Shown piece after piece: positions 2,015 through 11,602 of a DNA stretch of 11,602 nucleotides. The stretch covers positions 1 through 11,602 of the forward strand of contig JBDRJQ010000031.1 in assembly GCA_043814765.1 (NCBI GenBank). Reading direction: 5' to 3'. Position numbers and translations under genes: made by a program. Origin of the DNA: Nanobdellota archaeon (lineage in GTDB: Archaea; Aenigmatarchaeota; Aenigmatarchaeia; QMZP01). The notes under the pieces were generated by a model, which searched no databases, had not been told where the DNA came from, and saw nothing but the letters and a program-made list of their open reading frames with translations. Position 1 is the stretch's first letter. Every line of letters begins with the position of its first letter.

Positions 2015-4210
2015 ATGAAAAAACAATTTTACTCTTTAATACTATCAGTTGTATTTATTTTTTTACTTTCTTTAAGCACGGCACAATATGTAGTAGCCAC
2101 TCCAGAAATAGGAATTGGCTTGGATCCAGTCCAGATGTCAACATGCCCTGACAGGGTTCTTACTGCAAATGATGTTGACGTAGAAATTCAGAACCTTGGA
2201 GATGCAACAAGAACATTCACTGTTAAGATAAACTGTAACGGGTGGGTTTGCAGCTCATTCCATGAATATGTAAACAAAAACCTTGTTCTAATGTCAGGCG
2301 AGAAAAAAACAGTTGACATACTGTTTATGACACTGCCAGCTAACATGAACCCTGGTATATATGAAATAGAATTCGTAGTTACTGATGTTTCTTCTCTGGA
2401 ATTCGCTACAAGAACGCTTGAGATAGAAATACTAGGATGCTATTCTGTTGATCTAAAAATAGATAATGATAAGCAGAGCGTCTGCTCTGTGGATGCAGAT
2501 GAAATTGTTTACGATATCACTGTTGAAAATACTGGACAAGAGACAGATACCTTCAAGCTTTCAACCCCTGAAATCAACTGGGTTAAGTTTAGGGATATTG
2601 CTACACAAAACTTCGTTACAAATGTGATTTTAGACTCAGGTGAAACAATGGATTTTGAAATGGTAGTAACACCGCCAGAGTTGGGAATCGGAACACATGA
2701 AATTGATGTTAAAGTGGCTTCTACGTCAAATTATGCGCAAGACACTGAAAAGGTTTGGTTTGATATAGAAGAATGTTATGGTTTTTCTGTTAGCATAGAG
2801 CCTGAAGCAAATGATGCCTGCACTGGAAGACCCGCCGAGTATCTGTTAACCATACAGAACACAGGGCAAACAGAAGACAGATATTTGATAAACGCTCCTA
2901 ATTGGGTAGAACTGCAAGAGGTTGACGTAACAGTAGCAGCCGGACAGTCAGTGAGCATATCATTGGCAGCAACTCCTTCGCAGGAAGGAACAACTGAGTT
3001 TGAAATAACAGTCAACTCAGCTAACGATCCAGACTCAACAAAGAGTGTAACAGCATCTGTAACCAGCGAGCCTTGCAGAGGAGCATCTGTCGAAGTGTCT
3101 CCTGCAGAACAGTCTGTATGCGGCGGGGATACCACAAATTATGTTGTTAAAATCAAAAACTTGGGAACAGAGAGCGATACATTCACTCTTGAAACAAGCC
3201 ATGGTGTGCTTGAGAATGAAGTTGTAACAATAAGCTCTCTTGAAACAAAGCTTGTTGATCTGGTGGTTGATACAGCAGGAATCACAGGAACAGAAACTGT
3301 CACTGTTACTGTTAAAGGCATAGATGTAGAAAAGATAGGAACAGCTGACTTGATAGTGGATGAGTGCTACACTACTTTGTTCACTGTGGATCCAGAGATA
3401 AACACTGGATGCGCCTGTTCAGAAGTAAGCTACACATTCACTGTAACCAACACAGGAAAGAACCCAGACACCTACACGCTTCAGTTTGAAGACATGGTAA
3501 AGAGTTTTGATCTGGAAGCAGGAGAGACCAAGGAAGTTGCTTTTGACTACGCTGTTGATTGCGAACTAACAGATGTTCACCTGCTCTCTGCAGCACTGAC
3601 ATCAGAAGGCGGTGTTTCAGAGGCTATAGAAATAGGCTTGAACGTGCTAGCAAAAGACGCATGTTATTCTGTTGAACTGACAAGAATTGACGGAGATGAA
3701 GTAATAGAAGTGGTAGACGGCGGAGACGCTAAAGGAAAAGGTGTTGTCTTATTGCTAAAGAACAACGGGGAATTCCTTTCAGATTTTGATGTAGGAATAG
3801 AAGGACCTGATTGGGTATACATAGAGCCAATAGAGGCTTCATTAGATACAGGTGAGGAAGTAAACCTGTACGTTTATGTGGCTCCTCTTTACGGCACAGA
3901 AGCAGGCCTGTACACAGCAAAAATAACTGTTGACTCATTCAACGCTCATGCAGAAGTAGAGCTGAACATGAATGTTTTATCAGATTTTGTTCCTGATGAA
4001 ACAGTTGATGTTACAGAAAATGAGAGTGCAGACGACTCTGTCCTTGAAATCAATACAAGCTTCGGTGATGATGTAACAGGCGAAGTTGTTGGCGGCGAAG
4101 ACGCAGAGACAGAAGAAATACCTTTCTGGAAAACACTAACAATCGGAGTAATAACATTGATAATAATACTGATACTTCTTGCAAGATTCATTCTTCTTAT
4201 GAGGAAGTAG
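2015..4210 (+). CDS. Cell-surface protein with six tandem Ig-like (NEW3/CARDB-like, COG1470-type) modules, signal peptide and C-terminal TM anchor
   Basis: Signal peptide MKKQFYSLILSVVFIFLLSLSTA. Six ~100-aa repeats with an [IVL]xNxG-x3-4-[DT]-x-[FY] motif (IQNLGDATRTF, VENTGQETDTF, IQNTGQTEDRY, IKNLGTESDTF, VTNTGKNPDTY, LKNNGEFLSDF). Acidic linker, then a C-terminal TM helix and MRK tail. Confidence 0.85.
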   Translation: MKKQFYSLILSVVFIFLLSLSTAQYVVATPEIGIGLDPVQMSTCPDRVLTANDVDVEIQNLGDATRTFTVKINCNGWVCSSFHEYVNKNLVLMSGEKKTVDILFMTLPANMNPGIYEIEFVVTDVSSLEFATRTLEIEILGCYSVDLKIDNDKQSVCSVDADEIVYDITVENTGQETDTFKLSTPEINWVKFRDIATQNFVTNVILDSGETMDFEMVVTPPELGIGTHEIDVKVASTSNYAQDTEKVWFDIEECYGFSVSIEPEANDACTGRPAEYLLTIQNTGQTEDRYLINAPNWVELQEVDVTVAAGQSVSISLAATPSQEGTTEFEITVNSANDPDSTKSVTASVTSEPCRGASVEVSPAEQSVCGGDTTNYVVKIKNLGTESDTFTLETSHGVLENEVVTISSLETKLVDLVVDTAGITGTETVTVTVKGIDVEKIGTADLIVDECYTTLFTVDPEINTGCACSEVSYTFTVTNTGKNPDTYTLQFEDMVKSFDLEAGETKEVAFDYAVDCELTDVHLLSAALTSEGGVSEAIEIGLNVLAKDACYSVELTRIDGDEVIEVVDGGDAKGKGVVLLLKNNGEFLSDFDVGIEGPDWVYIEPIEASLDTGEEVNLYVYVAPLYGTEAGLYTAKITVDSFNAHAEVELNMNVLSDFVPDETVDVTENESADDSVLEINTSFGDDVTGEVVGGEDAETEEIPFWKTLTIGVITLIIILILLARFILLMRK

Positions 4211-9431: not shown

Positions 9432-9878
9432 TTACAACCTATGCAGATTATGTTTAACAGCAGAAGTTTTGTTCATTAATCCTGTTTGGCCATGTTTTCT
9501 GGCGCTTTCATTGGCTTCATCGCATAAAGCTTCCATGAATTCTATTTCCTCATTTGTTGGTTTTTTGCTCAGTTCAATAGGAACAAAAAAATGTTCATCT
9601 AATAATTCACGTTCACCGTTGCCCATATTAACATAATCAGAGCAAATCGCCCTTATTCCTCTTTGATTGTCACTGCCTTTATGCTGAAAACCAACAACCA
9701 TTAAATGGTTTTCTCTTTCGAAAAGATATGAAGCTATGTGTGCGCGGCAGTTTCCGCAGTATGGACATTCACCGTTCTCCAACACACACTTTCCGTTGGG
9801 TTGATAAACAGAACGAAATTCATCAGCTTCAGAAAGATATTTTTTGACCTTTAAAACCAAGCTTCCATTTTTTGCCAT
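9432..9878 (-). CDS. Hypothetical protein with Cys cluster (possible Zn-binding)
   Basis: 148-aa ATG ORF, CVLENGECPYCGNC motif, ends 4 nt before the DUF192 start (likely co-transcribed). Confidence 0.65.
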   Translation of the reverse strand: MAKNGSLVLKVKKYLSEADEFRSVYQPNGKCVLENGECPYCGNCRAHIASYLFERENHLMVVGFQHKGSDNQRGIRAICSDYVNMGNGERELLDEHFFVPIELSKKPTNEEIEFMEALCDEANESARKHGQTGLMNKTSAVKHNLHRL

Positions 9879-9986
9879 AGTTTATTTTTGTCGCAAACGA
9901 ATAAAAACATTGTTTTACACTCACTTTATCCACAAAACACTACCTAGCGAGCCTATTTACCTTACCAAACAGGTCTCACTTTCACT

Positions 9987-10012: not shown

Positions 10013-10099
10013 TTCCTGGGATATATTTTTTCTACTACATTCTACAATATATATTATTTGTTAGTTGTTTCATATAATCTATATATAGTTAGATACTTT

Positions 10100-10132
10100 A
10101 TGTAACATATTACATGATATATATATATATAT
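10100..10132. repeat. AT-rich tract: ATGTAA-CATA-TTACAT dyad followed by (AT)8
   Basis: Dyad at 10100-10115; (AT)8 at 10117-10132. Confidence 0.7.
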
Positions 10133-10198
10133 TACACAGATATTCATTTGCTATATATTTTTCATCATAAGTGAGTATTAAAAACGGACATATGCACC

Positions 10199-10753
10199 TC
10201 ATTTTGTGCTTGAGAAGGCTTTGTCAACCCACTCTTTTGCCTTTTCAACCCCGGTTCTTGTATATATTGCAGTTGTTTCCAAACTCTCGTGACCAAGTAT
10301 GGTTTGTATCACATTTAGTGGAACACCACTGTTCTGTAAATGCGTAGCATAGGAGTGCCTCAATGTGTGTGGATGCACCTCATCATACTTCCTTATACCT
10401 GCTTTTTGAGCATAAATTTTTACGATACGCCTTATGTGCCTATCGCTTAGCTTGCCTTTAGATCTGCCGGAAAACAAGAACCCTTCTCTATCTTTAATGA
10501 AATTTTTCAGTTCTTCTATAAAGTCTCCAGGAATAGGCACATATCTATCTTTGTCTCTTTTACTCTGGACCACCTTAACTGTTCTGTTTATAATGTCTGT
10601 GTTATCTATGAGCATTTTTTGAGCTTCTGAATTTCTTAAACCTAAAAAATAAAGACATTTTAGAAGCATGTTATCCCTGGAGGAATCTTCAGATGCTTTG
10701 AACATTTCTGCGACCTCTAGGGGTGTAAGAAATCTAGGCAATTTCCTTATCAT
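10199..10753 (-). CDS. Tyrosine recombinase (Xer/integrase superfamily), catalytic domain only
   Basis: Complete catalytic set R40 (GLRNSE), K65, H129-x-x-R132 (HTLRHSYATH), H155 (LGH), Y164. It begins at the KLPRFLT linker that normally follows the core-binding domain. An in-frame TAA at 10775-10777 excludes an N-terminal extension. Confidence 0.93.
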   Translation of the reverse strand: MIRKLPRFLTPLEVAEMFKASEDSSRDNMLLKCLYFLGLRNSEAQKMLIDNTDIINRTVKVVQSKRDKDRYVPIPGDFIEELKNFIKDREGFLFSGRSKGKLSDRHIRRIVKIYAQKAGIRKYDEVHPHTLRHSYATHLQNSGVPLNVIQTILGHESLETTAIYTRTGVEKAKEWVDKAFSSTK

Positions 10754-10778
10754 ATCTATAATTGTCTTCAGATCTTAA

Positions 10779-10806
10779 ATGTCCGAGAATACGGATTGTC
10801 GGACAT
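10779..10806. other. dif-like tyrosine-recombinase core site, ATGTCCGAGAA-TACGGA-TTGTCGGACAT (11-6-11)
   Basis: Arms are reverse complements with one mismatch (ATGTCCGAGAA vs ATGTCCGACAA), with a 6-bp spacer and 28 bp total. It lies 25 bp upstream of the recombinase ATG. Confidence 0.75.
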
Positions 10807-10852: not shown

Positions 10853-10930
10853 AACCTATTAGAGCTCATTTAGTGGTAAAATTGAAGTTTTGGGGTCCAG
10901 ACCTTTTCTAAAGGATTGAAAATGTCCGAA

Positions 10931-10942
10931 TTTAACTCTCAC
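10931..10942 (+). repeat. 12-bp direct repeat, right copy (TTTAACTCTCAC), next to a dif-like half-site (10920-10929)
   Basis: Identical to 9987-9998. It is preceded by AAATGTCCGA, which is identical to 10777-10786. Confidence 0.55.
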
Positions 10943-11114
10943 TTTCTAGATCTTTTATATAATTTTCAAACCTTTCTTCATCAACAGGACAAATAGCAGA
11001 TTTGTTTACTATTCTATCCAATACAGAACAATAAACACCGTTCTCTGTGTGGCAAGCCATCTCCTGAGCTTTATCAGAATCAGATGCTTTGCATGAATAA
11101 CTGCAGAATCTCAT
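10932..11114 (-). CDS. Small Cys-rich protein (5 Cys; possible metal binding)
   Basis: 60 aa, CSYSC...CHTENGVYC...KSAIC. Starts 5 nt after the wHTH stop, suggesting an operon. Confidence 0.65.
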   Translation of the reverse strand: MRFCSYSCKASDSDKAQEMACHTENGVYCSVLDRIVNKSAICPVDEERFENYIKDLESES

Positions 11115-11119
11115 ATGGA

Positions 11120-11464
11120 TTATTTAGAACTAACGCTTTTATTCTTCTTAGCAGGAGATTTCTCCTTTTTTGAAGCATTCTCCTCTATCTGGACAAACTT
11201 TTTCTGCATTGCTTCTAGATTATGCGCAATATCCCATCCGTCATCAGTTAGCTTTACATGCTTTATTCGGCCCTTTTTATCGAATTCAACAAGGCCTAGC
11301 TTCAAAAACTGATTTAGTATTTTGGTTGTGTGAGAGTACGTACAGTTGGCTTCCTTTGATAGTGTTGTGGCGTACACAGAATCCTTTGTGGATTTTAGTC
11401 CCATTAATATCTTTGCAGGTTTTTCCCGTAAAAACAGGTCCTCTAGCACTCGATTTTCAATCAT
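11120..11464 (-). CDS. Archaeal MarR-like winged-helix DNA-binding protein
   Basis: LFLREKPAKIL...YATTLSKEANCTYSHTTKILNQFLKLGLVEFDKKGRIKHVKLTDDG is a wHTH. Start moved from 11479 to ATG 11464, which is preceded by a GAGGTG Shine-Dalgarno sequence. Confidence 0.85.
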   Translation of the reverse strand: MIENRVLEDLFLREKPAKILMGLKSTKDSVYATTLSKEANCTYSHTTKILNQFLKLGLVEFDKKGRIKHVKLTDDGWDIAHNLEAMQKKFVQIEENASKKEKSPAKKNKSVSSK

Positions 11465-11602
11465 ACACCTCAACTTCAATTTTTATAATAAATATATGGA
11501 TTAAAGAAATATAAATGTTCTTTACTATTTTTTATAGAGTTTGTAAAAGATATATAATTATATATATATTATCAAACAATCTTTATTATTATTTCATTAT
11601 AT

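Follow-up and report, generated by a model that had tools for sequence, protein, structure and literature searches.

A two-domain C-clamp is thought to be required for Xer-type tyrosine recombinases to hold DNA. In the portions of the literature available to us, the Thermococcales XerA/dif systems have 11-6-11 sites and a dif that does not lie beside xerA (PMC2958812), xerS and difSL are adjacent and some archaea have xerA/dif modules (PMC5357621), and haloarchaeal dif is found upstream of the xerA operon (PMC11840125). The dif spacer of Thermococcus kodakarensis is TGTACC, and a chromosomal domain boundary that depends on TrmBL2 lies at this dif (PMC11840125). Archaeal families with the PF00589 domain only have been listed but not characterised, and the term 'DPANN' does not occur in the available text of that source (PMC8371274). 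Here we describe a locus of an Aenigmatarchaeota archaeon in which a short Xer-type recombinase, consisting of the catalytic domain alone, is encoded next to a 28-bp dif-like palindrome. A search of the literature (main texts) on archaeal XerA/dif, DPANN tyrosine recombinases and Aenigmarchaeota recombinases turned up no account of this family, of its site or of the chromosomal landmark in which they are found. With moderate confidence, we read the locus as a linked and probably autoregulated recombinase/site module of the Xer/dif type.

The window, i.e. the whole stretch of DNA analysed, is an entire 11.6-kb contig (11,602 nucleotides; contig C31) of an 859-kb metagenome-assembled genome, referred to below as G000, which comprises 39 contigs and has a completeness of 88%, a contamination of 1.2% and a GC content of 37%. 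It was compared with 41 genomes of relatives and with an order-wide set of 91 genomes. Related loci were collected by an alignment-based scan (a single-protein query gave no matches).

A short recombinase with a catalytic domain only

As the initial annotation of the window had stated, the product of the recombinase gene carries an intact R-K-HxxR-H-Y set and no N-terminal domain. The PF00589 profile matched residues 8–167 (E = 1.4e-36; 126.3 bits against a cut-off of 27.1), which correspond to profile positions 2–168 of 172 and assign the protein to the superfamily. There is no space for an N-terminal domain because this match and an in-frame stop, 8 codons 5' of the start, fill the front of the open reading frame (ORF). 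Both this stop and the 178-nt gap to the next same-strand ORF, which ends at 10932, were found where the annotation had put them. All catalytic residues (R40, K65, H129, R132, H155 and Y164) are present; in a 41-row alignment of the family the last five are invariant, R40 is at least 90% conserved, and all 41 members begin with M-x-RKLPRFLT. An AlphaFold2 (AF2) model computed from this alignment had a pLDDT of 85 and a pTM of 0.82.

The best match in the PDB was XerA of P. abyssi (4a8e, residues 99–276; E = 5.9e-29), and another structure, that of XerH (5jjv; E = 1.5e-13), showed weak similarity. Among the NCBIfam models the best was NF040815 (XerA_Arch; E = 1.7e-45), with a score of 155.6 bits; the match is confined to the C-terminal half of the profile (positions 91–261 of 263), and for this reason the score does not reach the cut-off of 220. 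The XerS model NF003462 gave E = 5.8e-17, and the FimB/FimE models NF007370 and NF007371 scored 54.5 and 41.5 bits against cut-offs of 221 and 222 (best E = 1.2e-14). The likeness to FimB/FimE invertases drawn in the initial annotation did not hold up against these values, and by profile and structure comparison the short recombinase is XerA-derived rather than FimB/FimE-like. A quick unrooted tree placed the 38 short-gene rows in one group (SH-aLRT 96) beside 42 full-length XerA-like rows from DPANN archaea (support 87); a single long bacterial row that attaches to the stem is unreliable.

Database searches returned 280 homologues, of which the 120 listed are 167–220 aa long and 59–92% identical to the query; the close ones are labelled Aenigmatarchaeota in GenBank. 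The 68 matches with no more than 45% identity all belong to Woese-, Pace- or Nanoarchaeota or to bacteria, have roughly 95–320 extra in-frame residues upstream and lack the palindrome motif. Close orthologues, unlike these distant matches, have no in-frame upstream extension.

A conserved 28-bp palindrome upstream of the gene

The near-perfect 11-6-11 palindrome reported in the initial annotation, ATGTCCGAGAA-TACGGA-TTGTCGGACAT, is present and is separated from the recombinase ATG by 25 nt; a 13-4-13 reading, with a single mismatch, is also possible. When up to two mismatches were allowed, the pattern ATGTCCG-N14-CGGACAT had one match in the window against 0.02 expected from shuffled sequences (at least one match in 4 of 200 shuffles). 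The sequence AATGTCCGA occurs four times in the whole genome, three of them at this locus. The annotated TTTAAG element was likewise found on the minus strand, overlapping the last base of the gene-proximal arm. It may act as a promoter element, and its spacing to the ATG would suit a leaderless archaeal mRNA. A/T-rich, TATA-like runs follow the site directly at three related loci (L013, L014 and L005).

Conservation of the palindrome upstream of homologues, on which the initial annotation had made its reading depend, was examined with the same pattern and mismatch limit in the 700 nt upstream of 39 distinct orthologous genes, pooled from the relatives and GenBank and about 47% or more identical to the query. 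It was found upstream of 23 of the 39, with the consensus ATGTCCGRAAA-N6-TTTYCGGACAT, an outcome that favours the reading of the initial annotation. Positions outside the search pattern were conserved too (A10 and A11 in 22 of 22 sites, T18 and T19 in 21 of 22), and the spacer, read in one orientation, fits T-R-Y-R-T-C (e.g. TACATC, TGTATC or TGTGCC). The outer 7 bp of the arms are strict and the inner bases looser, which, judging by what is known of the Cre and XerH complexes, would fit recognition by a catalytic domain alone.

Whole-genome searches with a loose pattern found matches in 14 of the 41 relatives, with a single copy in 12 of the 14, and in 13 of these genomes the match sits just upstream of the orthologue on the same contig; a reversed-pattern control matched 8 genomes. 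Across the order, 34 of the 91 genomes had a match with at most one mismatch. About 27 of the 91 were judged from the listed sequences to carry true sites, with A/T-rich inner arms and one site per genome (G057 being doubtful), and adjacency of site and gene was verified in 18 genomes.

Other recombinases in the genome and its relatives

The initial annotation had raised the question of a second, full-length XerA. PF00589 had one match in the whole of G000, at its 88% completeness, and the whole-genome profile search found neither a full-length XerA nor a PF02899 N-terminal domain. The same combination of a sole PF00589 match and no PF02899 was seen in 6 of the 13 palindrome-bearing relatives (G000, G014, G018, G019, G022 and G025), and in two further ones the extra recombinase is only a fragment or pseudogene.

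Full-length XerA-like genes (270–330 aa) are present in 16 of the 41 relatives. Five of the nine that were examined, including the one in G016, have a palindrome of their own, different from that of the short gene, 51–83 nt upstream; thus, a site before the gene is the local rule for both the short and the full-length enzymes. Full-length loci with strong palindromes include L029 (at ∼1123), L281, L086 (at ∼2082), L028 and L030, with arms of the TCATATCATGAC type among them, and from their sequence they look like ordinary xerA/dif modules.

A fusion was found in the same-genus genome G001 and in four genomes of genus g29: there, the orthologous catalytic domain follows a conserved N-terminal domain of ∼180 aa, which is 38% identical between G001 and G038, carries the motifs SDPEYEA.VAGF, KCGP and W.L, and has no Pfam family; it may be a nuclease-like or DNA-binding module. 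A second short recombinase, 25–28% identical to the first, is encoded next to the orthologue in G001, G009, G017, G023, G024 and G028, usually lying between the first gene and that of a winged helix-turn-helix (wHTH) protein described below, and a third short family was seen in G006, G013, G016 and G017. No homologue of the fused domain and none of the second short recombinase was found in G000, and searches for the palindrome in genomes with the fused domain or with the paired second recombinase gave no match. A homodimer site with one enzyme and no palindrome with two would recall the logic of XerC/D. In G038 (contig C44), two inverted copies of an asymmetric TGTCCG...CGGACA sequence (117947–117972 and 123180–123205) are separated by 5.2 kb, with short recombinase paralogues a few kb away, and may delimit an invertible or mobile segment.

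Neighbourhood of the module

The features of the locus and the related genes mentioned in the text are collected in Table 1.

Table 1. Features of the window (contig C31 of G000) and related genes in other genomes; positions refer to the window unless a locus is named.
Feature	Position	Strand	Remarks
Two CTCACTT motifs	9920, 9975 (9920..9981)	+	Point toward the module
AT-rich tract, GC ∼0.21	10020..10170	.	Between the module and the next gene
Half-site ATGTCCG-N9-CTCAC	10171..10191	-	Starts 8 nt past the recombinase stop (sense strand)
Short Xer-type tyrosine recombinase, catalytic domain alone	10199..10753	-	184 aa, ATG start
TTTAAG, TATA-like element	10774..10779	-	Shares 1 nt with the gene-proximal arm; begins 26 nt upstream of the ATG
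28-bp 11-6-11 palindrome, putative core (dif-like) site	10779..10806	.	ATGTCCGAGAA-TACGGA-TTGTCGGACAT
Second half-site ATGTCCG-N9-CTCAC	10922..10942	+	Inverted relative to the first; overlaps the 3' end of the 60-aa ORF
60-aa Cys-rich ORF	10932..11114	-	No family match (Pfam)
Small winged-helix protein	11120..11464	-	114 aa from the conserved ATG; TTG start at 11479 gives 119 aa
Second AT-rich tract	11480..11602	.	Reaches the contig end
Fused-domain recombinase	L138 (G001:C98) 2403-3497	-	Genus g29 copies in L020-L023
Second short recombinase family	L009 855-1472; L138 3494-4111; L139 3896-4513; L132; L133		∼205 aa, catalytic domain only
HerA-like genes	L141 6404-7912; L142 2768-4270		Repeat array in the spacer shared with the wHTH gene

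The wHTH protein is 58–89% identical across 27 relatives, with an invariant recognition helix (CTYSHT.K). Its gene is single-copy in 34 of the 41 relatives, including genomes without the recombinase, and is a conserved neighbour of the orthologue at 14 loci or more, sometimes in the other orientation. The predicted structure consists of a winged helix and a 29-residue C-terminal helix, and its fold is closest (Foldseek) to AF1382, MarR proteins, the pNOB8 centromere binder AspA and Sso10a-2. An RTP-like terminator fold was considered and rejected, RTP being missing among the best Foldseek matches listed. A complex prediction for the recombinase and the wHTH protein scored 0.00, which gives no verdict and counts neither way.

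At 10 palindrome-bearing loci, arrays of (A)ACTCTCACTTTTTGG-like motifs enclose the block of wHTH gene, site and recombinase; these arrays are convergent, i.e. mostly on the plus strand on the left and mostly on the minus strand on the right. AT-rich tracts also border the locus in relatives. Genomes that have no recombinase show these brackets around the wHTH gene, too, so the arrays belong to the wHTH landmark. Three same-strand CTCACTT motifs are found at the right end of another contig of G000, C18 (12817–13167; contig end 13284); this is probably the other bracket array, and C18 would then abut the right end of the window contig. The local clustering of CTCACTT is clear; genome-wide, no clear KOPS-like polarity was seen, the distal counts being too small. 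The initial annotation had presented the locus as a compact, self-contained module. The linkage of gene and site stands, and the claim that the module is self-contained falls with the half-sites, the conserved wHTH gene and the convergent arrays.

The 60-aa ORF has homologues only in G001 (49%) and G010 (41%). A 148-aa Cys-rich ORF without a family match (9432–9878, minus strand) lies, together with an AT-rich tract, between the recombinase and a DUF192 gene; in G001 the DUF192 gene comes directly next, and the G000 segment has the appearance of a lineage-specific insertion. A gene for a HerA-like (DUF87) ATPase of ∼500 aa is divergent from the wHTH gene in two genomes of family f2; the HerA-like genes of G000 are located away from this locus.

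Proposed function of the module

We propose that a Xer-type recombinase has lost its N-terminal core-binding domain and that the 28-bp palindrome is its cognate core site. Each 11-bp arm would be bound by one monomer, with the invariant outer ATGTCCG as the main contact, two occupied sites would synapse as a tetramer, and strands would be exchanged across the 6-bp spacer. The most likely job of such a system would be to resolve or unlink sister chromosomes at one fixed chromosomal site, in the manner of Xer/dif, because the enzyme is the only tyrosine recombinase found in G000. Since the site touches the TATA-like element, its occupancy probably also represses the recombinase gene, the mRNA of which is probably leaderless. 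The landmark formed by the wHTH gene, the arrays and the AT-rich tracts probably positions or organises the reaction.

Several observations weigh against this proposal. The palindrome was not found within 700 nt upstream of 16 of the 39 orthologues, that of the same-genus G001 included, and the orientation of the spacer relative to the gene is mixed. At 88% completeness, a second recombinase of G000 could sit in the unassembled part of the genome. The short gene and a full-length XerA-like gene occur together in five relatives (G004, G005, G008, G016 and G021), and with the two systems coexisting the short one is therefore not necessarily the dimer resolvase everywhere. In two other relatives, G002 and G011, not a single PF00589 match was found, at a completeness of 88% and 87%. 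Further, the short recombinase has no core-binding domain and no separate homologue of one was found in G000; therefore, a clamp of the XerA, XerD or Cre style is impossible as such.

The skew evidence makes a replication-linked position of the landmark plausible but no more. It comes from contigs of relatives, the 11.6-kb window contig being too short for skew analysis. Cumulative GC skew reached its minimum at 210 kb on contig C4 of G002 (555 kb; wHTH gene at 198.6 kb) and at 240 kb on contig C1 of G027 (600 kb; wHTH gene at 269.8 kb), both from relatives that have the wHTH landmark but neither the short recombinase nor the palindrome. On both contigs tested, the four to five best switch scores fell within 30 kb of the wHTH locus, in noisy profiles. 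The switch is a cumulative minimum, the sign of which is uncalibrated, with orc1/cdc6 at the contig ends and noisy flanks. By bacterial convention, such a minimum marks the origin rather than the terminus. An orc1-adjacent replication origin at the locus was considered and rejected: the main orc1/cdc6 gene is on another contig than the wHTH locus in all five genomes, and no orc1/cdc6 was found near the four loci examined. An origin without orc1 is possible. The 1.05-Mb contig C1 of G057 is a concatenated scaffold with many 100-N gaps and without the orthologue, and whole-contig skew is meaningless there.

Alternative explanations

A broader and more tentative reading, to which we give a modest probability, takes the wHTH gene, the convergent CTCACTT arrays and the AT-rich tracts as an undescribed replication or segregation landmark of Aenigmatarchaeota that houses the Xer enzyme without a core-binding domain together with its dif and supplies in trans both the positioning and the DNA clamping lost by the enzyme, the half-sites allowing cassette exchange. 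Such a landmark might serve as a fork trap or terminus, mark an SMC boundary or act as a centromere-like site.

The palindrome could also be an operator only, bound by the recombinase itself or by another factor such as the wHTH protein, with any recombination taking place elsewhere. Its overlap with the TATA-like element in G000 and its position 24–63 nt from the start in 14 orthologues are what one would expect of an operator, and the wHTH gene is a conserved upstream neighbour. Bases G8 and C21 are each present in 7 of 22 sites, mostly jointly, so the arms vary symmetrically, as would suit any homodimeric binder. We nevertheless consider this explanation unlikely. The site lies 175–339 nt from the start in eight orthologues and 642 nt in one. 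The wHTH recognition helix is invariant with or without the motif, yet no ATGTCCG motif was found at five loci that have the wHTH gene but no orthologue. The palindrome therefore goes with the recombinase and not with the wHTH gene, which argues against the plain wHTH operator that the initial annotation had named as a possible outcome. Moreover, the palindrome agrees with published dif-type sites in its 11-6-11 geometry, its GAAAA/TTTTC inner arms and its TGTAYC-like spacer.

Another alternative concerns the two ATGTCCG-N9-CTCAC half-sites, which are inverted relative to each other and enclose the recombinase gene and the palindrome: the locus might be a cassette that is inverted, excised or exchanged through them, i.e. 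a domesticated or active mobile or switching element. A search for TGTCCG-N5-24-CTCAC found these two and no other matches in the whole genome. In G001 the motif occupies these two positions as well, but around other content, the fused-domain gene and second recombinase instead of the short gene and palindrome of G000. Copies with the N9 spacing are dispersed in G004 (7) and G023 (13), against 0–1 control matches, and tandem gene duplicates exist. A longer form, ATGTCCG-N5-GCG-N∼10-CCTCAC, is found 2–11 nt after the stop codon in G014, G055, G018 and L049. ATGTCCG also occurs inside the coding sequence of 13 orthologues, at the N/D-V-R codons before HPHT, and the codons there are biased (GTC in 10 of 11 and CGN in 9 of 11, compared with 28% and 25% in these genes overall), an effect that is overstated, as the counts come from related genes. 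The half-sites, though unexplained, would thus keep a cassette or switch reading alive, but it is an improbable one: the locus is syntenic and vertically conserved beside the wHTH gene across the order, the window contains no tRNA gene or other integration hallmark (scans of the window found no Rfam family either), and the two-part pattern is not above controls genome-wide in G000. Neither a second orientation nor an empty site was observed, although the public sequencing runs found cover too little of the stretch to show them (one DNA set with 0.14 of its words, as contigs only, and no RNA set). The coding-sequence copies lie at codons ∼117–126 (e.g. in L009, L011, L048 and L041) and are followed by an AAATAC-like spacer start (N/D-V-R-K-Y); the recombinase gene of G000 itself has no such copy.

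The missing N-terminal domain and the decayed locus of G057 (a weak palindrome-like site with a recombinase fragment) might suggest that a full-length xerA/dif locus is decaying here and that palindrome and short ORF are what is left of it, with no present function. This is hardly credible given the number, similar length and identity of the homologues, the common start and intact catalytic set of the 41 aligned members, a reading frame without internal stops in G000 and the conservation of the site.

Significance and comparison with known systems

A conserved and apparently housekeeping relative of Xer that has only the catalytic domain, together with an identifiable 28-bp target, amounts to a minimal system that could serve the study of site recognition and synapsis without a core-binding domain, and it suggests that such enzymes may work without the part thought to clamp DNA. 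The position of the landmark near a skew switch in two relatives could offer a first way into studying how chromosomes of uncultured DPANN archaea are organised in connection with replication.

FimB/FimE invertases resemble the short recombinase in being ∼200-aa catalytic domains, and here, too, inverted elements (the half-sites) flank a short segment. Their sequence similarity is distant, no sign of inversion was seen at this locus, and the main site here is a single palindrome, not two inverted repeats around a promoter. The dif boundary of T. kodakarensis, with TrmBL2 and Smc-ScpAB, resembles this locus in that a dif-type site occurs together with flanking DNA of a special kind and with a nucleoid protein that binds DNA (PMC11840125). 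It differs in that the protein here is a 114-aa wHTH protein similar to AF1382, AspA and Sso10a, not TrmBL2, and is known from sequence alone; convergent CTCACTT arrays are not described for that boundary in the available part of the source (PMC11840125).

XerS/difSL and XerH/difH also comprise one recombinase that is genetically linked to its site, and G000, at its 88% completeness, likewise has a sole Xer-type enzyme linked to a site. The inner arms GAAAA/TTTTC are shared, and in the part of the paper available to us the difSL arm TTTCCGAAAA has TCCGAAAA in common with the consensus found here (PMC5357621). However, XerS (356 aa) and XerH are full-length two-domain proteins, and their similarity to the short recombinase is weak.

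The archaeal XerA/dif systems of P. abyssi, T. kodakarensis, T. acidophilum and haloarchaea have the closest catalytic domain and a single recombinase. They share with this locus a 28-bp 11-6-11 site, which is present here at the sequence level, and a TGTAYC-like spacer, and in some archaea the site is beside the gene (PMC5357621, PMC11840125; available parts). In contrast to these systems, the enzyme described here has no N-terminal SAM-like core-binding domain and scores under the XerA cut-off, the arms have a different sequence, and the site lies inside a landmark of a wHTH gene and repeat arrays with additional half-sites.

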